Assembly: GCA_038207085.1 (NCBI GenBank)
Contig: JBBRAE010000008.1
Coordinates: 1 to 64,000, forward strand
Origin: Armatimonadota bacterium
Lineage (GTDB): Bacteria; Armatimonadota; UBA5829; DTLH01
Direction: 5' to 3'
DNA length: 64,000 nt
Shown here: piece by piece, positions 24,948 through 37,030 of the stretch
Position numbering within the stretch: the first letter of the stretch is position 1
Layout of the letters: the number at the start of each line of letters is the position of its first letter
Program-made: the position numbers and the translations under genes
The notes under the pieces: generated by a model
Told to the model about the DNA's origin: nothing
The model's database searches: none
Seen by the model: the letters and a program-made list of their open reading frames with translations, nothing else

Positions 24948-25004
24948 TTGCATTCACTCGATCCCGATGATATACTTCAGTTACGGTTGTGAAATCGTGC
25001 ACGA
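24948..25004 (+). promoter_or_regulatory. rex promoter with Rex operator-like site
   Basis: TTGCAT-N17-TATACT (24948-24976), then TTGTGAAATCGTGCACGA (24987-25004), 2 mismatches to TTGTGAA-N4-TTCACAA. Confidence 0.75.
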
Positions 25005-25035
25005 TTCATTTTGAACTGTCCTCCAGGTGTGACTG

Positions 25036-25680
25036 ATGCGAAAAAACAACGGCCACAAAGTCCCAATGCCAACGCTTGAGCGACTTGCCACATATCTCAC
25101 CTCGCTAACCGAGCTTGCCGATCAGCAGGTGCAGACGGTATCCTCAAGCGACATCGAGCAGGTTACCGGGATCAACGCGGCTCAGTTCCGCAAGGACCTG
25201 TCCTACTTCGGCGAGTTCGGGCGACCGGGCATCGGCTACAATGTGCTGGAGCTAAGGAGTTGGATCGCCCAAATCCTCAAAGTCGAACGCGAGCAGCCCG
25301 TCATCCTCGTCGGCGCGGGAAACCTCGGGAGCGCGCTTGTGGGTTACGCGGGGCTTGGTATTCAGAACTTTCGGATCTGTGGCGTCTTTGACAACAACTA
25401 CAACAAGATCGGACGCAGGCTCTGGGACCAGGAGATTATGGACGTCGCGACGATTGTCGAGGCGAACAGCGAGATTCAGGCGCGCATCGGGGTGATCGCG
25501 GTTCCGGCGAGCGTGGGTCAGGATGTCGCCAACAGAATGATCGAGGCCGGAGTCAAGTCGATTCTCAACTTTGCGCCGACCAGGCTTAAGGTTCCAGAGG
25601 GCGTGGTCGTGCGAAATGTCGACTTTGTGCAGGAACTAGCCGTTCTCGCGTTTCATCTGTCGGAAGATGAATCCGAATGA
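25036..25680 (+). CDS. rex: Redox-sensing transcriptional repressor Rex
   Basis: TLERLATY, QFRKDLSYFGEFGRPGIGY, LVGAGNLG Rossmann motif, ILNFAP. Confidence 0.97.
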   Translation: MRKNNGHKVPMPTLERLATYLTSLTELADQQVQTVSSSDIEQVTGINAAQFRKDLSYFGEFGRPGIGYNVLELRSWIAQILKVEREQPVILVGAGNLGSALVGYAGLGIQNFRICGVFDNNYNKIGRRLWDQEIMDVATIVEANSEIQARIGVIAVPASVGQDVANRMIEAGVKSILNFAPTRLKVPEGVVVRNVDFVQELAVLAFHLSEDESE

Positions 25681-26099
25681 GGAAATACATGAAGAACTTC
25701 ACCATCGCCGCCGCGATCGTGCTTGTGGCCTCCGGGATAATCGTCGCCGCCCCCTCCAAAGACGCGAAGTACATCGGCGCGGACAAGTGCAAATCATGCC
25801 ACTCGACCGAGCACAAGGGCTGGAGCAAGACCGCGCATGCCCGGGCGTTTGATCAGCTCGCGAACGTCGGGCAGGAGAAAAACGGTGACTGCCTGCCCTG
25901 CCACACAACCGGTTACGGCATCGGCGGGTTCACCAATGAAGCTGCGACCCCGAACTTCAAAGCGGTGCAGTGCGAGAGTTGCCACGGGCCGGGAAGCGAG
26001 CACAACGGCGACGCCACAAAGATCGTGCGGGCGCCTTCCTCAATCATCTGCGCGGGCTGCCACCAAAGCCACGGACTTCACCCCAAAAGCAGCATGTAA
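25677..26099 (+). CDS. Exported tetraheme c-type cytochrome (c554/C-prime-like)
   Basis: Signal peptide; YIGADKCKSCH..W..T.HARA; 4 CxxCH (CKSCH, CLPCH, CESCH, CAGCH); ATGA overlap with the rex stop. Confidence 0.9.
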   Translation: MRKYMKNFTIAAAIVLVASGIIVAAPSKDAKYIGADKCKSCHSTEHKGWSKTAHARAFDQLANVGQEKNGDCLPCHTTGYGIGGFTNEAATPNFKAVQCESCHGPGSEHNGDATKIVRAPSSIICAGCHQSHGLHPKSSM

Positions 26100-26148
26100 G
26101 CAATCTTCACAGTGGTTTAAATAATCTTCAGTCACGCTTTAGTTTCCG

Positions 26149-26204
26149 TTGACAATCCTTGCAGGCTGGGGTATTATGAAACTGAACTGTGAACATCGGC
26201 ACAA
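26149..26204 (+). promoter_or_regulatory. Promoter of the 14-heme cytochrome with second Rex operator-like site
   Basis: TTGACA-N17-TATTAT (26149-26177), then CTGTGAACATCGGCACAA (26187-26204). Confidence 0.65.
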
Positions 26205-26263
26205 AGCCTGCAAGTAGCAAGCTGCGACATTCAACGCTCGTGCATGCCCGTGAAAGGGATCAG

Positions 26264-27397
26264 ATGGCTTCTGTATCGCGGTGGTCCTCAGCCATTCTGG
26301 CGACTCTTTTCTTAAGCCTCGCTGCTGTTGCGACGGCCGATACCGCGCCCGCGTCCCCCTCCGCTACCCTCAGCGCCGAGGAGTCATGCGGCAAGTGCCA
26401 CTTCGACAATTCCCCGAACGCCGTCTCCGGCAAGACCATCGAGAGCAAATACTGGAAAAGGTCCGACCACAAACGAAACGATGTCGAGTGCCTTTCCTGC
26501 CACTACGAACACGGCGGCTCGGCAGGGATGTTCAGGAAGAAGTCGCCGGATCTCTGCATCGGCTGCCACAAGGAGATCGCGAAAAAGGGCGATTACCTAC
26601 ATGCGCCGATCGCCGGAGGAGCGTGTCTTACCTGTCACAACCCTCACGGAACGAGCGCGCGCCATCAGCTTGTGAAGAACGTATCCACGTCGTGCGTCGC
26701 CTGCCACAGCCCCAAAGTCGCCAAGTTTACCCTCGCCCACAAGGGCATCGATGTTTCCACTTCGAACTGCGTCGAGTGCCATTCGGCCCATTCCCGCAAC
26801 AGGACAGCAAAGCGCATCAAACCCAGACAGCACATGCCGTTTAAGAGCGGTCAATGTGGCACGTGCCACAAACCTGGGAGCAGTGAGCTCGCCAAACCCG
26901 AGAAAGATCTCTGCGCGATCTGCCACAAAGACGTTGTCGGGTCCCCTGAGAAGGCGGGACATGCTCACGCCGCGGTTACAGAAGGGATGTGCACCCAGTG
27001 CCATTCCCCGCACGCGTCTGACGCTCCAAAGGGGCTTTACAAAGACAAACAGATTGCCAACTCCTGTTTCCTCTGCCACACAGGCGTAGAGGATGAGGTG
27101 AACTCGAAGTATAAGCACGAACCCGCGCGCGATCTCAACTGTCTCACCTGTCACAAGGGGCACTCGTCGACCCAGAAGACTTTGCTCGTCAAGGATTCGA
27201 TAGAGCTTTGCAAAGGCTGCCACAAGCCGCACGCTCATCCCTTTGGCAAGCTTGCAAACGGCAAGGTAGTCATCGACCCAACCACAAACGATATGCTCAC
27301 CTGCGCGAGTTGTCATACTCCGCACGGTTCAAACCATAACAAACTTACACATCTGGACAAGAACGCGGAACTCTGCACAATGTGCCACAAGGTGTAG
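26264..27397 (+). CDS. Exported multiheme c-type cytochrome, 14 CxxCH (paired CxxCH type)
   Basis: Signal peptide from ATG 26264; 14 CxxCH counted, mostly as CxxCHxxH..CxxCH pairs. Confidence 0.93.
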   Translation: MASVSRWSSAILATLFLSLAAVATADTAPASPSATLSAEESCGKCHFDNSPNAVSGKTIESKYWKRSDHKRNDVECLSCHYEHGGSAGMFRKKSPDLCIGCHKEIAKKGDYLHAPIAGGACLTCHNPHGTSARHQLVKNVSTSCVACHSPKVAKFTLAHKGIDVSTSNCVECHSAHSRNRTAKRIKPRQHMPFKSGQCGTCHKPGSSELAKPEKDLCAICHKDVVGSPEKAGHAHAAVTEGMCTQCHSPHASDAPKGLYKDKQIANSCFLCHTGVEDEVNSKYKHEPARDLNCLTCHKGHSSTQKTLLVKDSIELCKGCHKPHAHPFGKLANGKVVIDPTTNDMLTCASCHTPHGSNHNKLTHLDKNAELCTMCHKV

Positions 27398-27462
27398 ATA
27401 ACTAACCCGTTGTTTCGGGGACCCCGTCCCCGAAACCGACTGCTGGCATACGGCAAACTGAT

Positions 27463-28476
27463 ATGATCACAGCGAACTTCACAACTTGGCGCGTGGGCAT
27501 TGTGACAAAGTTCACTCTGCTCTTTATGATTGGAGCTATGTCGCACGCAGGCGGCACTGCGCTTCCTGAGATCAAAGATAACACCAATCTTTGCATTTAC
27601 GGATGGTCGCGCAGTGAGCCGTTCAAGAACCCCGGCGGCGTGTATTTCTATGCCAGACGCTCCGAGGTGTATGTCGCTGACTCCGGGAACCACCAGGTGC
27701 TTGTGTTCAACACCGCTGGGACGCCCGTTGCGAGGATCAGGCACAGCGTCGACTCCGAGACGCCGGGAGAGGTCCGTCAGGGTGAGCCCGTGCGGGTTGC
27801 GGTCAACTCCAGAGGCGACATCCTTTTGGTCGACGCGCTTGCGGGGTATCTCGACGTGCTCGACTACCGGGGCAAATCGATCAAACGGATATACCCCGGA
27901 GACCTGCTGGGGATGGCCCGGGATTTGGTATCGTGCTCGGCGGTTGCGGTGGATCTGGCAGACAATGTCTATCTTGCGACTGCGGGCGGCGAGGTCGCGG
28001 TGCTCATGATCGACCCGTCAGGCAAGCTTGTGCGCAAGATCGGCAAGAAGGGCCAGGGCGAAGGGGCGTTTACATCGATCACCTCGGTCTGGATCGATGG
28101 CGGTGGCAAGGTCTACACTACCGACTCCAGAGGCGAGCCGAGTGTGCAGGTGTTCTCGCCCGAAGGCAAAGTCCTGCTCGGGTTTGGGGCTCACTCGTCG
28201 GGGCCGAACAATTTCTCTCTACCCGAAGGCGTCGTAACCGACGAACTCGGCAACATCTACGTGATCGATGGGCTGCGCCACTGGATCGGCGCGTTCAGCC
28301 CGACCGGTCAGTTCATAACGAGGCTTGGCGGCGGGTTCGGTGATCGTCCCGGCGACCTTGCCTATCCGACCTCGCTCGCCGGAGACGGCAAACGGACCCT
28401 CTTTACGACCGAAAAGGTCGGGGCGAGGCTGCAGGGGTTCAATCTCAAAATCACACCACCGAAATCAGGTGATTGA
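27463..28476 (+). CDS. NHL-repeat beta-propeller protein
   Basis: FKNPGGV..VYVADSGNHQVLVF, FSLPEGVVTDELGNIYVID and LAYPTSL blades; hydrophobic N-terminus; start uncertain. Confidence 0.9.
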   Translation: MITANFTTWRVGIVTKFTLLFMIGAMSHAGGTALPEIKDNTNLCIYGWSRSEPFKNPGGVYFYARRSEVYVADSGNHQVLVFNTAGTPVARIRHSVDSETPGEVRQGEPVRVAVNSRGDILLVDALAGYLDVLDYRGKSIKRIYPGDLLGMARDLVSCSAVAVDLADNVYLATAGGEVAVLMIDPSGKLVRKIGKKGQGEGAFTSITSVWIDGGGKVYTTDSRGEPSVQVFSPEGKVLLGFGAHSSGPNNFSLPEGVVTDELGNIYVIDGLRHWIGAFSPTGQFITRLGGGFGDRPGDLAYPTSLAGDGKRTLFTTEKVGARLQGFNLKITPPKSGD

Positions 28477-28602
28477 TGATACAGGTCGGGCTTTGCCCGG
28501 CTTGGATAGTAAAACAGTATCAGTATAAGGAAAGAAGGTGAATCCTTAACTAACATTTACACTACAAAGTGTAGGGATTCAATAGTTAAGGAAGAAAAGA
28601 CC

Positions 28603-29685
28603 ATGAACAAAACGCTTCCAGTAATTGCCGTAGCGCTGATTGTAGTATTCGCAGCCGCTGTGTCATACGCCGGTGACTATCACTCAGGCGCCAACAACGT
28701 GTGTTCCGACTGCCACACCATGCACTACAGCCGCAGCCATGACACCGCGGGAGGCACGGGGACAGGTTTTACCGACCTCGGCCCCGGTGGTCTGTTCACA
28801 GGCTTGCTCCGGGATGAGCCGAACAAGCTCTGCCTGGCGTGCCATGACGGCAAGACCGACGCTCCCGACGTTCTCGGCAACAACACGAACAGCTACTCCC
28901 GCTCAGGGGGCGCGCTGAACGACACCGCCGGGACCGACGGCTATGCATCGTGGACCGGCCACACGCTCGGTTCCACATCCGCGGCTCCGGGCGGCACGTT
29001 TGCCGACGCCGAGGGGCTTGAGTGCATCGACTGCCACCATCAGCATGGTTCGGCTTCAAGTGGAAAAGACGCGACCGGAGCTACCGTCTCAAGCGCCTAC
29101 CGCAACCTGAAGTCGTGGAACGACGGCTCCGGCAACCGTGCGGTGAGCTACTCGGCCGGCGACACCAAAGACCTCACTAAGGACGTTTGGGAGGCCTACG
29201 GACACGGTTCGACGCTTGCTCAGCACTATGGGCAGGACAACGTCGGACTGCTCGAACCCGTTCAGACCAAGTCCGGTATGGCTGACTACTGCAAGAGCTG
29301 CCACACCAGCTTCCACGGCGCCAAGGGCGATGTGAACACCGTCGGCGGCGACGTGGCGACCGGGCACGATTGGCTTCGCCACCCGAATGCTGACAGCAAC
29401 ATCGGCGGTCAAACGACCAAGGGCCATTCCAACCTGGCCCGCTACAACACCAAGCTCTATCGCGTCCGCGTTATGAGCGGCTCGGGCAACTGGGGCACCC
29501 AGGGAGCAGCCTGGACCGGCGCTCCGACCGACCTTACCCCAACGTGTCTCTCCTGTCACAAGGCCCACGGCAACAAGAACGCCTTCGGCCTGGTCCTGGC
29601 AGACGGCACCGCAGCAATCGGCGAAGATGGAAACACAACTTCCACCAAGTCGACCTGCACCCAGTGCCACGTTCAGGGCGGGTAG
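28603..29685 (+). CDS. Exported hexaheme c-type cytochrome, OmcS-like
   Basis: Signal peptide; YHSG...CSDCHTMH; 6 CxxCH with the last at the C-terminus; GHTL, AYRNL, LRHP and CLSCHKAH motifs. Confidence 0.85.
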   Translation: MNKTLPVIAVALIVVFAAAVSYAGDYHSGANNVCSDCHTMHYSRSHDTAGGTGTGFTDLGPGGLFTGLLRDEPNKLCLACHDGKTDAPDVLGNNTNSYSRSGGALNDTAGTDGYASWTGHTLGSTSAAPGGTFADAEGLECIDCHHQHGSASSGKDATGATVSSAYRNLKSWNDGSGNRAVSYSAGDTKDLTKDVWEAYGHGSTLAQHYGQDNVGLLEPVQTKSGMADYCKSCHTSFHGAKGDVNTVGGDVATGHDWLRHPNADSNIGGQTTKGHSNLARYNTKLYRVRVMSGSGNWGTQGAAWTGAPTDLTPTCLSCHKAHGNKNAFGLVLADGTAAIGEDGNTTSTKSTCTQCHVQGG

Positions 29686-29711
29686 GGCGCAAGCTGTTAG
29701 CTGTTAAGTAT

Positions 29712-29743
29712 GGGCGGCGAAAGAGATTTCGCCGCCCTGTTTT
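29712..29743 (+). terminator. Rho-independent terminator
   Basis: GGGCGGCGAAA-GAGA-TTTCGCCGCCC then TGTTTT. Confidence 0.8.
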
Positions 29744-29795
29744 ACGTTCTCCCGGCGATGGCAAAAGCTCAATTCTCTCCGCGGATGCTGCGATC

Positions 29796-29831
29796 TTGAC
29801 GTCGAAATATGGTATGACTATAATAGTCATA
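29796..29831 (+). promoter_or_regulatory. vapBC promoter with palindromic operator
   Basis: TTGACG-N17-TATAAT; perfect palindrome TATGACTAT-A-ATAGTCATA (29813-29831) covers the -10. Confidence 0.8.
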
Positions 29832-29855
29832 TTAAGAGTATTAGGTGTACATATT

Positions 29856-30149
29856 ATGCGAACTGCAGCGATAGCGAAGCTAAAGGCGGGATTGTCCGGG
29901 TACCTTGAGAGCGTGAAAGGCGGAGAGCAGGTTGTGGTTACAGACCGTGGCCGTCCGGTGGCGCTCATTGTGCCTATTGATCCGAATATATCTATGGATG
30001 AGAGACGAGCGGAACTTGTCGCCAAGGGGCTGGTAAGGCCCGGTTGTGGATCAATCCCGGTGGATTTGATAGAAGGGGCCGTCGTTTCCGGTCTGACATC
30101 TGAGCGTGCGCTTCAGGCTGTTATTGAAGACCGCGAGGACAGAGTATGA
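29856..30149 (+). CDS. vapB: Phd/YefM-family antitoxin
   Basis: MRTAAIAKLKAGLSGYLESVKGGEQVVVTDRGRPVALIVP; overlaps the PIN gene by ATGA. Confidence 0.9.
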   Translation: MRTAAIAKLKAGLSGYLESVKGGEQVVVTDRGRPVALIVPIDPNISMDERRAELVAKGLVRPGCGSIPVDLIEGAVVSGLTSERALQAVIEDREDRV

Positions 30150-30568
30150 AGTTCTGGGATACCTCCGCGCTTTTCGTGCTCCTGACCGTCCAGCCCGACA
30201 GCTCCAGTGCCGCCGCCGTGTTTGGCTCTGATCCTGAGGTGGCGATGTGGTGGGTGACATCCGTCGAGTTGGCCTCGGCAGCGTCCCGGTTGCGTAGAAT
30301 GGGTGAGGTTGACGAGGCGGGCTATGTGCGCATACTCAGCAAGATAGCGCCTTTTGCTCGGAGCGCTGAGGAGGTCCAGCCTACTGAGGAGGTCAGGCAG
30401 ACCGCGCTCAGGCTGATCCGGGTCCACGACCTGCGTACCGCTGACTCGCTCCAACTCGCGGCAGCTCTTGTCTGGGCAAGGCACGTCCCAACAGGTCTTG
30501 GGTTTGTATGCATGGATGCGAAGCTTCGTGCAGCTGCCGAAAAAGAGGGTTTTATCGTCTTGGGATAA
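30146..30568 (+). CDS. vapC: PIN-domain toxin
   Basis: FWDTSAL, VELASA, LRTADSLQLAAA, D.KL..AA..EGF. Confidence 0.92.
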   Translation: MKFWDTSALFVLLTVQPDSSSAAAVFGSDPEVAMWWVTSVELASAASRLRRMGEVDEAGYVRILSKIAPFARSAEEVQPTEEVRQTALRLIRVHDLRTADSLQLAAALVWARHVPTGLGFVCMDAKLRAAAEKEGFIVLG

Positions 30569-31038: not shown

Positions 31039-33018
31039 ATGGGTCAGAAACGTATTCAGAAGAAACCTGCACCTGTAGAGGTGGCAGTTGACTGGCGAGT
31101 GATCGCTGGGATAATCATTGCGCTGGCGTTTGGGACGCTTGTGGTCTACCTGCGGGTTGTTGGGCATCAATTTCTTCAGTTTGACGACCCTGAATATATA
31201 AAGAAGAACTTCAATATTGTCAACGGTCCGACGCCTGAAGCTATCAGGTGGGCGTTTGCCAAGACCGGCTACTGCTCGAACTGGCACCCACTGACGTGGA
31301 TATCCCATATGATCGATATGAAGATCTTTGGGATGGATGCGGGGATGCACCTTCTCGTCAACGTCGCGCTGCACATTGGAAGCACGGTGCTGCTGTTCCT
31401 TGGGCTTTTCAAGCTCACGGGGTCTCCGTGGCGAAGTGCGTTTGTGGCGGCGCTTTTTGCCGTTCACCCCGCGCATGTGGAGTCGGTCGCGTGGGTTGCT
31501 GAGCGCAAAGACGTGCTCTCGACGTTCTTTCTTATGCTCACCATCCTCTCCTACGCGCACTACGTGAAGCGCAAGGGGACGGCGAAATACGCGCTCTATG
31601 GGGCGATGATCGTAAGCTACGCGCTCGGGCTGCTCTCCAAACCGATGCTGGTCACGCTGCCGTTTGTGCTGCTTCTGCTCGACTGGTGGCCGCTTGGCAG
31701 GTTCGCCCGGGTCCAGAATGGCAAGAAGGTAGAAACTCGGCCGTCGATCTTCTCGATCGTCGCCGAAAAACTGCCACTCTTTGCGATGGCGGCGTTTTCT
31801 TCTTATATGACCTACTCCGTGCAGCGGATGGGTGGGGCGGTCGCCTCGACCACGCTCACTCTCGGTATGAGAATCGACAACGCCTTCGTCGCCTACGCAA
31901 ACTACATAGGAAAGCTACTTTTTCCAGTGAAACTCGCGGTGGTGTATCCTCACCCCGGCAACACTCTGCCGATCGTAAACGCGATTGCCGCTATGGCGCT
32001 GATCGCCGCGCTTTCGATCGCATTTGCACGAATGACGCGCAAACATCCCTATATCGGGATGGGGTGGGTGTTCTTTATCTTTACGCTCCTGCCTGTGATC
32101 GGACTTTTCGTGCAGGTCGGCGAGCAGGGGATGGCGGACCGATACACCTACGTGCCGTACATCGGGCTCTTTATCATGATCGCCTGGGGAGTGCCGGAGC
32201 TCCTTGCGAGAATGCCTGATCGGAAGCGCGCGCAGACACTTGGCGCGCTTGCGGGCGTGGTAATCCTCGCGCTTGCGGCAGGGACCTATCATCAAGTCGG
32301 ATACTGGAAGGACACCGGCACACTTTTCAGGCATACGATCGCAGTCACGCCGCCGAATATCACCGCAGAGATCAACCTCGGGGCCTGGCTTGAGGATCCG
32401 GAGCGGGGCAAGCGGCCGGAGGCGATCGAGCACTACAAGGCGGCCCTTGACGTGAACCCAAACCATGTGAGGTCGCTCAACCTGCTCGCAACGGCTTATG
32501 CTCGGGATCAGAGGTATCAGGAAGCCGTCGATATCTATCAGAAGGCGCTCTCCCTCTCCGATGACCTCAACGTGACCAACAATATCGGGCTCACGCTAAA
32601 CGAAATGGGCAAACCCAAGGACGCGATCCCTTATCTTGAGAAGGTAATTGCACTGAAGCCGGACTTCTTTGCAGCCTATAATAATCTCGGGAACTCCTAT
32701 AGAATGCTTGGTCAGTATGATAAAGCAGTAGAGCTGTTTGATCAGGCTATTGGCATCAACCCGTCGCTCGGACATTCCTACGCAAACCGAGGGCTTGTGC
32801 GCGTGCTGCAGGGAAGGTTCGACGAGGCTTTGGCCGACTATGCCGAAGCCCTGAGGGTCGACCCGAACCTCGGCTACGTGCATACGAGAATGGGCGCGGC
32901 GTACTACTTCATGAAACGCTACCCAGAAGCGCTCGAAGAACTCCGACAGGGTGCGGATATGGGTGTTGAACCTGACCCGGCACTTCTGGCTGACCTCAAG
33001 GCCAGGCTCGGGCAGTGA
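31039..33018 (+). CDS. TMTC-like GT-C membrane glycosyltransferase with C-terminal TPRs
   Basis: FLQFDD.EY, NWHPLTW, HPAHVESVAWVAERKD, LLSKP and ADRYTYVP motifs; multi-TM N-half; TPR C-half. Confidence 0.85.
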   Translation: MGQKRIQKKPAPVEVAVDWRVIAGIIIALAFGTLVVYLRVVGHQFLQFDDPEYIKKNFNIVNGPTPEAIRWAFAKTGYCSNWHPLTWISHMIDMKIFGMDAGMHLLVNVALHIGSTVLLFLGLFKLTGSPWRSAFVAALFAVHPAHVESVAWVAERKDVLSTFFLMLTILSYAHYVKRKGTAKYALYGAMIVSYALGLLSKPMLVTLPFVLLLLDWWPLGRFARVQNGKKVETRPSIFSIVAEKLPLFAMAAFSSYMTYSVQRMGGAVASTTLTLGMRIDNAFVAYANYIGKLLFPVKLAVVYPHPGNTLPIVNAIAAMALIAALSIAFARMTRKHPYIGMGWVFFIFTLLPVIGLFVQVGEQGMADRYTYVPYIGLFIMIAWGVPELLARMPDRKRAQTLGALAGVVILALAAGTYHQVGYWKDTGTLFRHTIAVTPPNITAEINLGAWLEDPERGKRPEAIEHYKAALDVNPNHVRSLNLLATAYARDQRYQEAVDIYQKALSLSDDLNVTNNIGLTLNEMGKPKDAIPYLEKVIALKPDFFAAYNNLGNSYRMLGQYDKAVELFDQAIGINPSLGHSYANRGLVRVLQGRFDEALADYAEALRVDPNLGYVHTRMGAAYYFMKRYPEALEELRQGADMGVEPDPALLADLKARLGQ

Positions 33019-33061
33019 TAGGCGAAGACGGCCTCAGCCGTTGACATTTTGACAGTGCAGG

Positions 33062-33102
33062 CTAGCGAGAGCTTTATTCGTTTCACTAATAAAGCTGGCT
33101 AG
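33062..33102 (-). repeat. Single-hairpin member of the palindromic repeat family
   Basis: CTAGCGAGAGCTTTATTCGTTTCACTAATAAAGCTGGCTAG; near reverse complement of 47687-47727. Confidence 0.8.
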
Positions 33103-33139
33103 AAATTACTCAGCAATGTCCATTAAAGGAGAATCTGCT

Positions 33140-36100
33140 ATGCTAAAGCGCGTTCCGATCTACGCGTTCATCGTTTTGTTGTTGGCCAGCCTGGTGACAA
33201 CAGCTGTTGCTCAGGAGAAGAAAGCTCCGACTCCGCCCAAGAAAGACCCGGCGATGGTCCACTTCCAGAAGGCCATCGAGGCTCACAAGGCGAAGAAGCT
33301 GGACGACGCCATGCGTGAGTACAAGGAAGTTGCGAAGCTCAAGCCTTCGTTCTCCGTCGTGTACTTCAATATGGCAGCGATCCATATGCAGAGAAACGAG
33401 CTCGACGCGGCTATTCCGCTGCTTCTTAAAGTGGAAAAGTTAGAGCCGAAGAACTCCGAAGTTCCTGTTCAGCTCGTACGTATCTATTTCTCCAAAAAGC
33501 AGATGGAGCAAGCCGCCGCGCAGGCTAAAATTGCGGTTGGGCTGAAGAGCAAGGACCCCGTAGCCTACTATGTGTTGGGCATGCAGGCGTTCGAGAAGAA
33601 AAATTACGCTTCGGCTGCATCGAACCTGCGCCGGGTCGTCGATCTCAACCCCACGGACTCACAGGTGCGCTTCAATCTCGCCTATTCCTACATGCAGACC
33701 GGCAAATACGCGCTTGCTCTTAAAGAGTGCGAGAAGCTGACGGCGAAAGACCCCGACAATCTCCAATACCGTCAGATGGCCGCCGAGGCCGCGCGGCTTT
33801 CCAAGAACACCAAGGCCGCTGTGAAGCAGTACGAGGCGATAGCCAAGTTTGATCCCAAAGACACCACTGCGCTTGTCGCCCTTGCCAAGCATTACGAGCA
33901 GACCGGCGACATTAAGAAGTCCAAATCGACTTTCGAGCGGCTTCTCAAGATAAGCAAGCCCGGAAGCGAAGTGGAGTATATCGCAATATTCAACCTCGGA
34001 CGCCTCGCATTCGAGGAGCGACAGTTCAACGTCGCCAAGACGTACTTTGCCAAGGCTTGCGTGCTTCATCCCAAGGATATCAGTGCGAAGCTGAACCTCG
34101 GGCTTGCCGAAACTCAGCTCAAACAGTATGATCTTGCGCTCAAGCACTTCAATGCGGCGCTTGCGATCAACCCCAAACACAGGGGAGCGCTGCTTGGTAT
34201 AGCTGGTATCTACGAAGAGAAGAAAGATTACGAAAACTGCCGCAAATACCTAGGCAAGCTTGCTGCGTATTATCCCAAGGAGTCGCAGTATCTGGTTCAG
34301 ACCGCGTTCGTCTATCTTGAAGAGAACAATACTGACGACGCTGAGAAGACCCTTAAAGACGTTCTCGCCAAGTTCCCGAACGACGTTGCGGCGATGTCCG
34401 GGCTCGCGGATATCTACACCCGTGGACGCAAATATGAGGACGCGATCAAGCAGTGGGAAGCCGTCGGCAAGCTTCCGGCTTCGGCAGTCAGAGCTTCCGG
34501 CGTGCCGGTCCCTGACTACAGGGAGATGATCGCCCAGGTCCATACTCAGGAAAACAGGCACGACAAGGCAGCCGAGCGCTACAAAGACATTCTAAAGGGC
34601 GACCCGGACAACAGTCGAATCCTCGCCGCGCTTGCCGAGTCCTACAGCCGTGGCGGCTTCGCTCAGGAGTCGATCAACACCTGGAGGCAGGTGGAAAAGC
34701 TGAACCCGGATATGGTTGAGCCCTATTTGAGTATTGCCAGGGTCATTCGCACAAACGAGAGGATGTCCCAGGACACCCGCCTCGCAGGCGCAGCAAAGGA
34801 GCTCGAAGGCATCAAGCCGAAGTTCCCGAAGAGCAGGGCGCTTCTTGAGGTGCTTGCCGACATCTACGCCGAGCAGAAGCAGTATGACAAGGCGATCGCC
34901 GCCTGGCAGGAGATCGACACAAAGAAGCTCGCTTCAGAGGGTATGAAGGCGTCCGAGCCGACCGACCGCATAGCCGACCTTCTGGCCGACAAGGGGGACA
35001 TCAATGCCGCGCTCGGCAAATATGACCCGATGATAACCAAGAACTCGAAAGACCCCGTTCCCTATAAGGGCAAGGCGAGGATCTATCTTCGGGACAAGAA
35101 ATATGACGACGCAGTCGCCCAGTGGGAGATGGTAAAGAGCCTCGACCCCAAGAAGATCGATGCCTATCAGCAGATCGCCAATATCTACCGCATGCAGGCC
35201 TTCGAGAAGAAGGAACTCTTCGACAAGGCAATCGGCCAGTACAAAGAGTTCCTCGGGAAAGCTCCCGGCGACGAAGACAAGAAGATGGCTATGTGGCAGA
35301 TGGCGGGCGTATATCACGACGCCAAACGCTACGATGAGACCATCGCCGAGCTTCGCGAGATCGCAGCCGCGTTCCCCAAAGACGCGAAGATGATGAACAT
35401 TACCGACAACATCGCTCGGATCTACTCCACGCAGGGGAAATATGATCTTGCGATTGATGAATACGTCAAAGCCCTCAAGGCTGATCCCAAGGACTCAAAC
35501 GCTTTAACGGGGCTGACACAAGTCTATGGCGAGAAGAAGGATCCCACGCTTGGGGAGCCGGAAGTCGCCGCGCTTCGCAAGCTGATCGAAATCTGCCCGG
35601 ATAACGTCGAGGTGAAAGTCGACGCTTACAGGCAGATAGCGAACTTGTTCTTGAAGAAAGATCAGGACGAGGCGGCATCAAAGGAGTTTGTCGAGGTCGT
35701 CAAGCTTCGCCCCGGGGACGTCAGCACGATCCTCCAGCTCGCGCGGCTTTATGAAAAGCTCGGCAAGAAACCTGAGGCATACGAGCAGTATCGCGCGGCT
35801 GCCAAGTTCAGACCGCTATTTAGAGTGGAGTCCGCCCGTATGCTCGTGGAGCAGGGCAAGGTGGCAGAGGCGAAAGCCGAGCTTGAGGACGCTATCAAGA
35901 CCGATCCCAAGAACGGCAGGACGCACAGCTCACTCGGCAAGATCTATGAGAACGAAGGCAAGACCGACCTCGCCGTGATCGAGTATAAGGCGGCGATCAC
36001 ACTCGACCCGACGATCTTCGACGCGACGTTCGGCCTGATGAAGATCTACGAGAAACAGGGCAAGCTTGACGAGGCCGCGAAGCTTCAGCGCAAGCTTATT

Positions 36101-37030
36101 GAGAATAACCCGAACAACACGAGCCCGACCGACCTGATGCGCGCGCTTGAGAAGGCTGGCAAGATCGAAGAGGCTTCCAAAGAGTATCGGTCACAGATCG
36201 AGAAGAACCCGAAACTTGTCGCGCAGCTCCGCGCTGAGTGGTCGAGGATGCTCCTGCGCCACGATCGGCTGGAGTCGGCGCTTGCGGTCTATCAGGATAT
36301 GATGAAGGATGAAGTCACCAAGTGGGACGGCATCCGCGGGACCGGCGACGTCTATGCCAAACAGGGCAAAGACGCGCAGGCGATCAGCGCTTACAAGCAG
36401 GTGCTCGGCAAGTATCCGTCCTACCCGGACGTGATCGACCGGCTCGAAGCTATCTACGTCGCACAGGGCAAGCGTAACGAGTTCCTAAGCTACATGAAAG
36501 ACCTCGTCAGGACTTCCCAGACGAGCGCTCCCTACGACTTCATGATGGCGAAGTTCAAGTCCGCCGATAGGGCAAGCGAGGGGCTTTCTTACCTTGAGAG
36601 CCTGCAGACCGAGCGCCCGAACGACGACAACCTGAAGGTATGCATCGCCCGCTGGTATGCCGATGGCGGCAACCTGGCAAAGGCGATCGATATCTACGAG
36701 AAGCTGATCGCGACATCCACGCAGGACCCGGGCGTCGGCGTCCGACAGACGCTTGCGATGTTCTACGAGAAGGCCGGGGACAGTGCCAAGGCCATGGTCG
36801 AATACGGCAAATGCGTCGACCAGAGCGGCTCCCCTGAGCTTCGCATGAAGTATGCGGCGCTTCTTGAGAAGTCGGGTAAGAACGACGACGCGCTCATTCA
36901 GTATAAGAAGGTCCTCCAGATGGACCCCACGAACGAAGAGGCCACCCGCGGGATGAAGAGGATCGACCCGAATGCGGTCGCTCCGGCCCCCGAGCCCATG
37001 CCCGGCCAGATGGGCAACATGTCGCGTTAG
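33140..37030 (+). CDS. Very large exported TPR-repeat protein
   Basis: Signal peptide from ATG 33140 (AGGAG RBS); TPR-like units along nearly the whole ~1300 aa. Confidence 0.9.
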   Translation: MLKRVPIYAFIVLLLASLVTTAVAQEKKAPTPPKKDPAMVHFQKAIEAHKAKKLDDAMREYKEVAKLKPSFSVVYFNMAAIHMQRNELDAAIPLLLKVEKLEPKNSEVPVQLVRIYFSKKQMEQAAAQAKIAVGLKSKDPVAYYVLGMQAFEKKNYASAASNLRRVVDLNPTDSQVRFNLAYSYMQTGKYALALKECEKLTAKDPDNLQYRQMAAEAARLSKNTKAAVKQYEAIAKFDPKDTTALVALAKHYEQTGDIKKSKSTFERLLKISKPGSEVEYIAIFNLGRLAFEERQFNVAKTYFAKACVLHPKDISAKLNLGLAETQLKQYDLALKHFNAALAINPKHRGALLGIAGIYEEKKDYENCRKYLGKLAAYYPKESQYLVQTAFVYLEENNTDDAEKTLKDVLAKFPNDVAAMSGLADIYTRGRKYEDAIKQWEAVGKLPASAVRASGVPVPDYREMIAQVHTQENRHDKAAERYKDILKGDPDNSRILAALAESYSRGGFAQESINTWRQVEKLNPDMVEPYLSIARVIRTNERMSQDTRLAGAAKELEGIKPKFPKSRALLEVLADIYAEQKQYDKAIAAWQEIDTKKLASEGMKASEPTDRIADLLADKGDINAALGKYDPMITKNSKDPVPYKGKARIYLRDKKYDDAVAQWEMVKSLDPKKIDAYQQIANIYRMQAFEKKELFDKAIGQYKEFLGKAPGDEDKKMAMWQMAGVYHDAKRYDETIAELREIAAAFPKDAKMMNITDNIARIYSTQGKYDLAIDEYVKALKADPKDSNALTGLTQVYGEKKDPTLGEPEVAALRKLIEICPDNVEVKVDAYRQIANLFLKKDQDEAASKEFVEVVKLRPGDVSTILQLARLYEKLGKKPEAYEQYRAAAKFRPLFRVESARMLVEQGKVAEAKAELEDAIKTDPKNGRTHSSLGKIYENEGKTDLAVIEYKAAITLDPTIFDATFGLMKIYEKQGKLDEAAKLQRKLIENNPNNTSPTDLMRALEKAGKIEEASKEYRSQIEKNPKLVAQLRAEWSRMLLRHDRLESALAVYQDMMKDEVTKWDGIRGTGDVYAKQGKDAQAISAYKQVLGKYPSYPDVIDRLEAIYVAQGKRNEFLSYMKDLVRTSQTSAPYDFMMAKFKSADRASEGLSYLESLQTERPNDDNLKVCIARWYADGGNLAKAIDIYEKLIATSTQDPGVGVRQTLAMFYEKAGDSAKAMVEYGKCVDQSGSPELRMKYAALLEKSGKNDDALIQYKKVLQMDPTNEEATRGMKRIDPNAVAPAPEPMPGQMGNMSR

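Follow-up and report, generated by a model that had tools for sequence, protein, structure and literature searches.

We found a five-gene cluster in an Armatimonadota bacterium in which a gene for Rex, an NADH/NAD+-sensing repressor, precedes genes for three multiheme cytochromes and a beta-propeller. Given this arrangement and one cytochrome's relatedness to OmcS, the cluster probably provides an electron-export route that is switched on as NADH builds up. On balance, we lean toward reading it as a Rex-repressed, NADH-derepressed extracytoplasmic electron-transfer module. The stretch of DNA analysed (64 kb; hereafter the window) has the following features in this region, all on the + strand:

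24948..24976, +, weak promoter-like element upstream of rex (TTGCAT, 17 nt, TATACT; read from the sequence, under the consensus-scan threshold)
24987..25004, +, Rex operator-like palindrome 1, TTGTGAAATCGTGCACGA, 2 mismatches to TTGTGAANNNNTTCACAA (motif scan)
25036..25680, +, rex, NADH/NAD+-sensing transcriptional repressor, 214 aa (Pfam Put_DNA-bind_N and CoA_binding; NCBIfam)
25677..26099, +, tetraheme c554-like cytochrome, 4 CxxCH (CxxCH count, Pfam, PDB)
26149..26177, +, strong sigma-70-like promoter before the 14-heme gene (TTGACA, 17 nt, TATTAT; 11/12; consensus scan)
26187..26204, +, Rex operator-like palindrome 2, CTGTGAACATCGGCACAA, 3 mismatches (motif scan)
26189..27397, +, 14-heme MtrA-like cytochrome (14 CxxCH; six Paired_CXXCH_1 stretches in Pfam)
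27412..27436, +, GC-rich hairpin past the 14-heme stop codon, no T tract (read from the sequence; not in the terminator scan)
27463..28476, +, secreted six-bladed NHL beta-propeller, 337 aa (Pfam NHL)
27500..27517, +, Rex box-like site 3, TTGTGACAAAGTTCACTC, 3 mismatches, in the NHL signal-peptide codons (motif scan)
28482..28504, +, hairpin past the NHL stop codon, no T tract (minimum-free-energy fold; not in the terminator scan)
28543..28592, +, two-tier hairpin in the 6-heme gene leader, its 3' arm overlapping the Shine-Dalgarno AAGGAAG (RNA fold)
28603..29685, +, OmcS-family hexaheme cytochrome, 360 aa, 6 CxxCH (profile, AF2 model, Foldseek)
29712..29737, +, intrinsic terminator, 11-bp stem with 8 GC pairs, tail TGTTTT (terminator scan)

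Gene content of the cluster and its host

The five open reading frames (ORFs) are co-oriented in the order rex, 4-heme, 14-heme, NHL propeller, and 6-heme gene; all lie where the original prediction had placed them, and the Pfam and NCBIfam identities agree. The three cytochrome genes encode 4, 14, and 6 CxxCH motifs, exactly the sum of 24 that had been counted before. This motif is absent from the 43 other window ORFs counted (17,292 aa), so its concentration in three ORFs is far beyond chance. All three proteins match Pfam Cytochrome_C554 or Paired_CXXCH_1. Judged by hydrophobicity, each of the four proteins encoded after rex has a single strongly hydrophobic stretch at the N-terminus and none further along, which fits the signal peptides predicted for the cytochromes.

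The host belongs to Armatimonadota, as had been proposed; the best homologues of the cluster were found in an Armatimonadetes MAG, and among the best 120 homologues of Rex, all 14 with a named phylum were from Armatimonadota. Rex itself is a normal protein of this phylum. It scores above the cut-offs of three NCBIfam Rex equivalog models (NF003993, 236.9 bits, cut-off 217; NF003992, 230.2 bits, cut-off 226; NF003994, 201.9 bits, cut-off 130), and its translation shows the Rossmann motif GAGNLG.

With PDB matches to 6I5B_A (E=8.5e-16) and to cytochrome c554 1BVB (E=1e-13), the 4-heme protein is c554/OcwA-like. The ATGA overlap between rex and this gene, pointed out in the original prediction, is present in the sequence but is probably not the true start; ATG 25689, located 8 nt past the rex stop codon and giving 136 aa, is likelier. 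This ATG is preceded by a GAGGA motif, and a length of 135 aa is shared by the six nearest homologues (P0242-P0247, 61-70% identity), the database call for the window's own protein being 136 aa. For the 14-heme gene, the start is probably ATG 26264 (377 aa), which has a Shine-Dalgarno-like AAGGGA and gives a product with a signal peptide. Both revised starts leave the heme counts unchanged. The 14-heme protein matches PDB 6R2Q chain A (single sequence, E=5.1e-12; profile, E=7.2e-25), which we take to be MtrA, the record's own label being different. Its score against the DmsE/MtrA NCBIfam model (134 bits) is under the cut-off of 192, and it lacks the N-terminal di-heme module seen in four 16-heme relatives.

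The weak element at 24948..24976 may be the rex promoter. In 5.5 kb, there are seven promoter-like sites compared with 1.8 expected from shuffles, and a consensus match is here a putative promoter. The hairpin past the 14-heme gene may act in RNA stability or as a partial stop. The two-tier hairpin ahead of the 6-heme gene (-18.8 kcal/mol, z = -3.93; none of 200 shuffles folds as well) has no match among Rfam families. The sole canonical terminator of the cluster, with its 11-bp stem and T tract, is the one past the last gene and closes the cluster as predicted. A Pfam scan of the 47 window ORFs found no porin, Ccm, or Res genes, in agreement with the first reading of this DNA. The 64-kb window also has no large beta-barrel, CsgG-like lipoprotein, cytochrome c maturation gene, or quinol dehydrogenase, and these absences count against an electron-transfer module.

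The OmcS-family hexaheme protein and the neighbouring propeller

A profile of 62 homologues of the 6-heme protein matches OmcS (6EF8) at E=1.1e-15, with the alignment beginning at OmcS residue 1; the single sequence gave no OmcS match in the PDB at E up to 10. The AF2 model (pLDDT 83.1, pTM 0.82) has 6EF8_A as its sole Foldseek match in the PDB (E=1.9e-6, probability 1.00, TM 0.41/0.37), a moderate fold match (TM about 0.4) with approximately 18% identity across the fold alignment. The profile and fold matches agree with the OmcS-like character first assigned to this protein and make it a distant member of the OmcS family. Eight non-motif His are invariant. His27 and His41 are found in 62/62 sequences. 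Residues 1-16 of OmcS align with the protein's mature N-terminus (GDYH...CxxCH-x-M-H), and OmcS His16 is presumably a ligand to a heme of the next subunit. The monomer model is least confident over the N-terminal 40 residues.

A profile of the NHL protein's family matches solved NHL-propeller structures, with a best E of 1.8e-74. Of 77 evaluable loci from 13 named phyla, 67 have the NHL gene directly upstream of the 6-heme gene, such that the synteny in relatives anticipated at the outset holds for this pair, and CsgG/GNA1162-like lipoproteins are found near the pair in 47/79 loci. Adjacency of rex is not a general trait, as rex lies beside the cytochrome cluster in none of the 79 species-representative loci. 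Close Rex and 4-heme homologues appear together on five contigs, on the basis of identical longest-contig sizes rather than the DNA itself (6304, 6397, and 47491 for Rex, 4-heme, and 6-heme homologues; 4368 and 3473 for Rex and 4-heme homologues).

Candidate Rex operators in the window and in relatives

The published consensus of the general Rex motif is TTGTGAANNNNTTCACAA (PMC5317091). In the window, palindrome 1 starts 11 nt past the TATACT hexamer, stops 32 nt short of the rex ATG, and overlaps a perfect 14-bp palindrome, AATCGTGCACGATT. Palindrome 2 starts 10 nt past the -10 hexamer of the 11-of-12 promoter, at the expected transcription start. Site 3 is the weakest of the three and of uncertain function, with an additional TTCACAA half-site nearby at 27478. 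With up to three mismatches, the 64 kb contains four matches compared with 1.56 expected, three of them inside the cluster, and at least three sites within 2.6 kb were found in none of 300 dinucleotide shuffles. The spacer between the NHL and 6-heme genes has no Rex box in the window (best match, 5 mismatches). That the window boxes are imperfect (2, 3, and 3 mismatches) and that the third is in coding sequence count against a Rex module. The half-sites and spacing of TGTGA-N6-TCACA are presumably also those of CRP/FNR-type regulators, so the motif alone does not name Rex.

Each of the eight Armatimonadota-like loci carries one or more boxes (up to 3 mismatches) upstream of a homologous gene. 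Their upstream territory contains 17 such sites in 16,065 bp compared with 4 in the other 118,085 bp, and 10 compared with 0 at up to 2 mismatches; this territory takes in some coding sequence, and its counts are inflated because CxxCH codons (TGT CAC) make half-sites inside cytochrome genes. The spacer between the 4-heme and 14-heme genes has two perfect boxes in locus L060 and one with 3 mismatches in locus L078. In other phyla, boxes with up to 2 mismatches occur in 16 of 67 spacers between the NHL and 6-heme genes (200 shuffles: mean 0.125, maximum 1). In 13 aligned box-bearing spacers of the Zixibacteria/Ignavibacteria type, the box and TTGACA form conserved islands in sequence that is 39% identical. 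Among the loci on the tree, 19/58 have boxes near the NHL or 6-heme gene, with high proportions in Zixibacteria (9/11) and Ignavibacteriota (3/4) and none in Krumholzibacteria (0/5) or Gemmatimonadota (0/3). The predicted redox control by Rex is strengthened by operator-like sites that recur in relatives and lie where a repressor would act.

Known systems, proposed mechanism, and alternatives

Published work already describes comparable gene sets as well as Rex motifs ahead of multiheme genes, which weakens the novelty of the cluster. In Desulfovibrio ferrophilus IS5, DFE_0448-0451 and DFE_0461-0465 place 12-/14-heme MtrA-like cytochromes, NHL-repeat beta-propellers, and predicted extracellular cytochromes side by side (Deng 2018, PMC5815863). 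The available text names no classical porin and proposes that the propeller stabilises the complex, and that these clusters, induced by electron-donor starvation, serve electron uptake (PMC5815863). Their likeness to the window's proteins is by description, and, unlike the window, they have no Rex involvement in that description. The smallest OmcE nanowire clusters are described with the same parts list, i.e., two multiheme cytochromes, beta-propeller lipoproteins, and a filament subunit (PMC13712944). However, the OmcE subunit is a tetraheme of another family (7TFS matches the 6-heme profile only at E=0.12), and those clusters are described with two propellers and a large beta-barrel that is always present, which the window lacks. 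OmcS, the nanowire subunit of Geobacter sulfurreducens, shares with the window protein six hemes, profile homology from the mature N-terminus, and a companion gene set; the osc (omcS companion) cluster is credited with factors for folding, secretion, and morphology (PMC13194489, citing Shen 2025). In the literature searched, we found no confirmation of the original prediction's statement that Geobacter omcS has an NHL-propeller gene nearby. In contrast, the window set belongs to a different phylum, includes rex, and accompanies its hexaheme only with a propeller and two other cytochromes. Compared with MtrCAB of Shewanella, the 14-heme protein is homologous to 6R2Q chain A but has 14 hemes instead of 10, and the window has neither an MtrB-like barrel nor an MtrC-like decaheme. 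As for Rex regulons, the Caldithrix rex-led hydrogenase operon resembles the window set in having rex as the first gene and a Rex box shortly upstream (38 bp, two deviations; PMC5317091), and in Calderihabitans maritimus, three extracellular multiheme genes induced under reducing conditions are described as having Rex-like motifs upstream (PMC7306483). The window differs from these in that the target is an OmcS-family cluster in Armatimonadota; in the literature searched, we found no description of this box recurring upstream of the homologous clusters that other phyla carry.

In the mechanism that we infer, Rex would bind the palindromes by the promoter of rex and the 4-heme gene and by the 14-heme transcription start at low NADH/NAD+, keeping the genes off. 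When acceptors run short, NADH would accumulate, Rex would be released, and the whole set would be transcribed to the single terminator. All four products downstream of rex would be exported. The c554-like tetraheme may carry electrons in the periplasm, and the MtrA-like 14-heme protein may form a long heme wire that leads towards the outer membrane or through it. The OmcS-family hexaheme may be the outermost element and may polymerise head-to-tail like OmcS; the NHL propeller would be a conserved partner that assembles or scaffolds it. The electrons would flow out to acceptors that are insoluble or lie outside the cell.

It is improbable that the palindromes belong to another regulator (e.g., CRP/FNR-type, TGTGA-N6-TCACA) or are RNA hairpins, with the position of rex saying little about control of the rest. 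The shared half-sites and spacing and the lack of rex in all 79 loci favor this, as do the 13 aligned spacers, in which the full palindrome lies approximately 100 nt downstream of the conserved TTGACA promoter and would therefore sit inside the leader. However, a scan of 28 box-bearing loci, covering 78 of 91 candidate mid-sized ORFs (13 being left out by eye as short or antisense), found no Crp/Fnr-family gene, and its only DNA-binding regulators were response regulators of the LuxR type, in L012 and L016. At the flanking positions of the Rex consensus (TTGTGAA), T and A are the letters seen most often, and the half-sites are kept with no compensatory changes at positions 7 and 12, unlike an RNA stem. 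Box 1 of the window also precedes rex, as in the Caldithrix operon described in PMC5317091.

A Rex-controlled export module would also compete with two other roles. Multiheme chains are reversible in principle, and the module might take up electrons from solid donors or partner cells, or run both ways, as proposed for the D. ferrophilus clusters whose described architecture it matches (PMC5815863). We regard this as unlikely, since Rex is described as repressing at low NADH and releasing at high NADH (PMC5317091, PMC7306483), a logic that suits electron disposal and not uptake in starvation. Somewhat less doubtful, though still a minority view, is that the 6-heme protein is a monomeric periplasmic or cell-surface cytochrome that forms no filament, the set being a periplasmic electron sink or a soluble-acceptor reductase chain and the propeller an ordinary binding partner. 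Neither a secretion channel nor a large beta-barrel or CsgG-like gene lies in the window, the OmcS fold match is only moderate, and the OmcS paralogues OmcT, OscC, and OmcJ are called OmcS-like in the available text (PMC13194489), with no filament evidence for them found in the literature searched. Against this reading stand the N-terminal alignment with OmcS and the invariant His27 and His41, and the low-confidence N-terminal segment of the monomer model might, speculatively, be one that packs against a neighbour. The described nanowire clusters also have the same make-up of multihemes, propeller, and subunit (PMC13712944).

Organization and boundaries of the cluster

The original prediction of five co-oriented ORFs led by rex was confirmed, and all of them reside on the plus strand:

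25036-25680, plus strand, rex
25677-26099, plus strand, tetraheme (4-heme) cytochrome gene
26189-27397, plus strand, 14-heme cytochrome gene
27463-28476, plus strand, NHL propeller gene
28603-29685, plus strand, 6-heme cytochrome gene
29712-29737, plus strand, terminator

The 24 CxxCH motifs attributed to this cluster were counted as 4 + 14 + 6 in the three cytochrome ORFs, and the motif is absent from the 43 other window ORFs counted (17,292 aa). Each of the four proteins encoded downstream of rex has a single hydrophobic stretch, which is N-terminal. The first gene encodes Rex, with Pfam domains PF06971 and PF02629 (N-terminal winged-helix DNA-binding and C-terminal Rossmann NAD(H) domains, respectively) and scores over the curated cut-offs of all three NCBIfam Rex equivalogs (NF003993, NF003992, and NF003994). 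An organism is named for 15 of the best 120 Rex homologues, namely, 14 Armatimonadota/Armatimonadetes and one "[bacterium]". A recent transfer of the cluster was considered and rejected, as the GC content is even throughout the region and carries no sign of such an event.

The ATGA overlap proposed between rex and the tetraheme gene is present in the sequence, but the likelier tetraheme start is ATG 25689, located 8 nt past the rex stop, because GAGGA precedes it, a length of 135 aa is shared by the six closest homologues (61-70% identity), and the database call for the window protein is 136 aa. For the 14-heme gene, ATG 26264 is the more likely start. The predicted closing terminator was also found: an 11-bp GC-rich stem with a T tract, located after the 6-heme gene, is the sole canonical terminator that a terminator scan detected between or after the genes on the cluster strand.

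Two GC-rich hairpins without a T tract follow the stops of the 14-heme gene (27412-27436) and the NHL gene (28482-28504) and might produce different transcript levels inside one operon. A two-tier hairpin (28543-28592) is located just 5' of the 6-heme start, and its 3' arm overlaps the ribosome-binding site. None of 200 shuffles folded as well (z -3.93), and no Rfam family was matched; this hairpin could act in translation control or mRNA stabilisation for the putative major subunit. The Rfam scan of the cluster gave a single sub-threshold match, on the terminator hairpin.

Directly past the terminator (29763-30568), there is a Phd/YefM-type antitoxin gene (Pfam E=3.9e-8) with an overlapping 140-aa partner that has no Pfam match. 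This pair has its own 11-of-12 promoter (29796-29824), looks like a toxin-antitoxin pair, and was not found beside the cluster in relatives. Further downstream (31039-37030) are two large TPR proteins, one of 659 aa whose N-terminal half is hydrophobic and one of 1304 aa; neither has a counterpart beside the cluster in relatives. The 659-aa membrane protein was rejected as a cluster member on this ground.

Relationships of the cytochromes and the propeller

The 6-heme protein resembles OmcS in having six CxxCH motifs, a length in the range of about 350-430 aa, and a signal peptide. A word-indexed search found 590 relatives at E<=0.001, and a profile search against 1.84 billion cluster representatives found 1558 at E<=0.001, 631 at E<=1e-10, and 244 at E<=1e-30. 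The single sequence has no relevant match in the PDB. A profile of 62 homologues matched OmcS (6EF8) at E=1.1e-15 in three stretches spanning OmcS 1-392, followed by OmcE at E=0.12. The alignment begins at residue 1 of mature OmcS, where the family pattern "YH.G...C..CH.MH" faces "FHSGGVAECEGCHTMH" of OmcS.

Eight non-motif histidines (27, 41, 46, 120, 148, 238, 260, and 322) are invariant in all 62 sequences, a number sufficient to supply the distal ligands for bis-His ligation, and the N-terminal one just after the first CxxCH is among them. His41 is aligned with OmcS His16, which we take to be a ligand to the heme of the neighbouring subunit. An AlphaFold model, built without hemes, has a pLDDT of 83.1 and a pTM of 0.82 and is weakest at residues 21-60. 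Its single Foldseek match in the PDB is 6EF8_A (E=1.9e-6, probability 1.00, 382 aligned columns, and TM 0.41/0.37). The profile match, the histidine alignment, and the sole fold match together argue for filing the 6-heme protein as a distant OmcS-family member, and the OmcS-like assignment made originally is upheld on these sequence and model comparisons.

The 14-heme protein matches 6R2Q chain A, which we take to be MtrA of the MtrCAB complex, at E=5.1e-12 as a single sequence and at E=7.2e-25 as a five-sequence profile. The search table lists this chain as "Cystathionine beta-synthase", apparently a misnomer in the record, given that the chain behaves like a decaheme cytochrome. Membership in the MtrA/DmsE decaheme family was rejected, as the TIGR03508 score of 134.1 bits is below the cut-off of 192.2 and the protein has 14 hemes, not ten. 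We therefore describe it as a relative of that family, yet not a member. The window gene (26264-27397) lacks the N-terminal di-heme, c554-like module found in four 16-heme Armatimonadota relatives:

Related loci with 16-heme proteins carrying the extra N-terminal di-heme module
L001, 2808-4175
L046, 6191-7612
L060, 1344-2819
L078, 6348-7796

The tetraheme protein is c554-like, and its best PDB match is 6I5B, presumably OcwA of Thermincola. The fourth gene encodes an NHL propeller according to Pfam, and its family profile matches solved NHL propellers with a best E of 1.8e-74.

Conservation and neighbouring genes in relatives

A profile scan of species-representative genomes with the 6-heme family confirmed 327 relatives, and the best 80 of these, representing 79 loci, were kept; 57 of the 79 loci carry a phylum name, from 13 phyla. 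The synteny expected in relatives was recovered for the NHL and 6-heme pair: an NHL gene on the same strand and within 800 bp upstream of the 6-heme gene was found in 67 of 77 evaluable loci among these best 80 of 327 relatives (two loci with too little upstream sequence were omitted). Because the pair is kept to this extent across 13 named phyla, the NHL propeller is marked as a core partner of the OmcS-like protein. Of the 77 evaluable loci, 56 have a 14-heme-like cytochrome, and a close tetraheme homologue was found in 6 of 79. The order 4-heme, 16-heme, NHL, and 6-heme is complete in L046, L060, and L078. The closest relative among the 79 loci, L001 (about 60% identity), has 16-heme, NHL, and 6-heme in this order, and the window pairs with it (SH-aLRT 98) in a quick tree of 59 6-heme sequences, from which full-length filters dropped eight of the 67 paired loci and from which the truncated L042 was omitted as well. 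None of the window's flanking genes recurs beside the cluster in the 79 loci.

The adjacency of rex did not hold as a shared trait, since tblastn at E<=1e-5 found no rex homologue in any of the 79 loci. This adjacency seems to recur in the closest relatives, as judged solely from identical "longest contig" values among homologous proteins from the sequence searches:

Homologues with identical "longest contig" values (identity to the window protein)
6304: Rex P0139, 76%; 4-heme P0245, 64%; 6-heme P0003, 61%
6397: Rex P0144, 74%; 4-heme P0243, 67%; 6-heme P0005, 57%
47491: Rex P0135, 74%; 4-heme P0246, 70%; 6-heme P0007, 55%
4368: Rex P0125, 81%; 4-heme P0242, 70%; 6-heme none
3473: Rex P0124, 81%; 4-heme P0250, 71%, partial; 6-heme none

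Genes encoding CsgG/GNA1162-like lipoproteins were found in 47 of 79 loci. These CsgG/GNA1162/LpoB-like genes occur as one or two per locus, directly upstream of NHL or elsewhere in the cluster (e.g., L008:2633-3811, L069:7363-8597, L077:7502-8683, and L003:19528-20610), and their products are candidate outer-membrane channels for secreting the OmcS-like subunit. No such homologue was found in the window, where the best tblastn match has an E of 0.032. With regard to nanowire assembly, the window has a propeller gene beside the subunit gene; channel, beta-barrel, CsgG-like, and prolyl-isomerase genes were not found within its 64 kb.

Several Armatimonadota loci have a PD40/WD40-like tandem beta-propeller protein of about 690-800 aa after the OmcS-like genes (L003:12201-14273, L005:2732-4807, L012:12492-14588, L060:5179-7290, and L046:1534-3924). 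The protein of about 690 aa downstream of the 6-heme gene was considered as an outer-membrane barrel and rejected, as it consists of PD40 beta-propeller repeats. An 8-9-heme protein is often encoded next and is fused to Big_1/invasin-like Ig domains in some loci. Neither protein is encoded in the window.

Rex operator-like palindromes and a proposed redox switch

The general Rex consensus is TTGTGAANNNNTTCACAA, as given in the accessible text of PMC5317091 (citing Ravcheev 2012). Three imperfect sites in the cluster approximate the operator TTGTGAA-N4-TTCACAA with 2-3 mismatches:

Rex operator-like palindromes in the cluster
Box 1, 24987, 2 mismatches, between a -10-like TATACT and the rex start
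Box 2, 26187, 3 mismatches, beginning 10 nt past the -10 of an 11-of-12 promoter in the spacer between the 4-heme and 14-heme genes
Box 3, 27500, 3 mismatches, in the first codons of the NHL gene, doubtful

At up to 3 mismatches, the window has four matches to the consensus (1.56 expected), three of which are in the cluster, and none of 300 shuffles placed three matches within 2.6 kb. The strong promoter and box 2 are located just 5' of the shortened 14-heme gene. The spacer between the NHL and 6-heme genes in the window has no Rex box, so the 6-heme gene could be under Rex only via co-transcription with the upstream genes, which would fit the single terminator.

Boxes were found upstream of homologous genes in all eight Armatimonadota-like loci, a count in which the upstream territory takes in some coding sequence and CxxCH codons can create Rex half-sites. 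The spacer between the 4-heme and 16-heme genes of L060 has two perfect boxes. Among the 67 spacers between NHL and 6-heme genes, 16 have a box at up to 2 mismatches (shuffles: mean 0.125, maximum 1), and all 16 are at least 231 bp long. By phylum, boxes near either gene were found in Zixibacteria (9/11), Ignavibacteriota (3/4), Eisenbacteria (2/8), Acidobacteriota (1/4), and Bacteroidota (1/1), as well as in 3 of 16 loci without a phylum name, and were absent from the other six groups (0/14).

In an alignment of 13 such spacers (L004, L008, L010, L011, L014, L019, L027, L029, L052, L055, L056, L059, and L069), TTGACA and the palindrome are prominent against a background of 39% identity. In the Zixibacteria/Ignavibacteria-type loci aligned, the OmcS-like gene is served by a conserved TTGACA promoter of its own, and a half-site overlaps the -10 region. 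The full palindrome is located about 100 nt beyond that half-site and is followed by a leader of about 200 nt. Operators paired at such a distance could act by looping or as a roadblock. In half-sites and spacing, these boxes are the same as CRP-type sites. A scan of 78 of the 91 mid-sized ORFs in 28 box-bearing loci detected no Crp/Fnr gene.

At the level of sequence analysis, the feature is real, and its interpretation as a candidate redox-regulated nanowire/extracellular electron transfer cluster is largely borne out. It is established that Rex binds at low NADH/NAD+ and is released at high NADH, as summarised in the accessible text of PMC5317091 and PMC7306483. At low NADH/NAD+, Rex on its operators would block the promoter of rex and the tetraheme gene and the strong promoter ahead of the 14-heme gene; at high NADH, Rex would be released. 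The exported products would form a chain, with the c554-like tetraheme as its periplasmic member, the 14-heme MtrA-like protein as a wire, and the OmcS-family hexaheme outside, for which the NHL propeller would be an assembly or scaffold partner. This regulatory logic of Rex favours electron disposal over uptake.

The novelty is less than originally thought, as the parts list and Rex-like motifs before multiheme genes are already in print. The same parts list is found in DFE_0448-0451 and DFE_0461-0465 of Desulfovibrio ferrophilus IS5, compared by architecture alone (accessible text of PMC5815863), in the OmcE nanowire clusters (accessible text of PMC13712944), and, as far as citing papers tell, in the osc cluster of OmcS. 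OmcS-like genes outside Geobacter were proposed earlier as filaments (PMC10553843), and Rex-like motifs occur ahead of three extracellular multiheme genes in a Firmicute (accessible text of PMC7306483). Supplementary tables aside, the literature searched yielded no description of a cluster that begins with rex, of an Armatimonadota cluster of the OmcS family, or of a box recurring across phyla upstream of OmcS-family or NHL genes.

A tentative and rather doubtful extension is that a Rex-type operator is an old cross-phylum switch on OmcS-family genes (in Armatimonadota, Zixibacteria, Ignavibacteriota, and others), by which cytoplasmic NADH/NAD+ directly gates the outermost conduit, and that one Armatimonadota lineage captured the sensor gene as the first cluster gene, there without a nearby porin or CsgG-like channel gene. 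Such a conduit, if true, would imply a previously undescribed, propeller-assisted envelope route. To our knowledge, little has been established on how nanowire-type cytochromes are regulated outside Geobacter, and extracellular electron transfer has not been reported in Armatimonadota. A direct NADH/NAD+ switch, if true, would give a simple testable rule for the timing of electron export in uncultured soil, sediment, and groundwater bacteria. Furthermore, the predicted disposal direction would help to interpret the many "DFE/OmcS" matches of metagenome surveys.

No gene for a quinol oxidase, a cytochrome maturation system, or an outer-membrane passage was found in the window; these functions may be encoded elsewhere in the genome. 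A ResB-like cytochrome c biogenesis gene, absent from the window, is located directly upstream of the homologous cluster on the Armatimonadetes chromosome of L046 (3942-5396, minus strand). Another three OmcS-like genes and a second NHL gene occur in this locus, and each set is preceded by Rex boxes.
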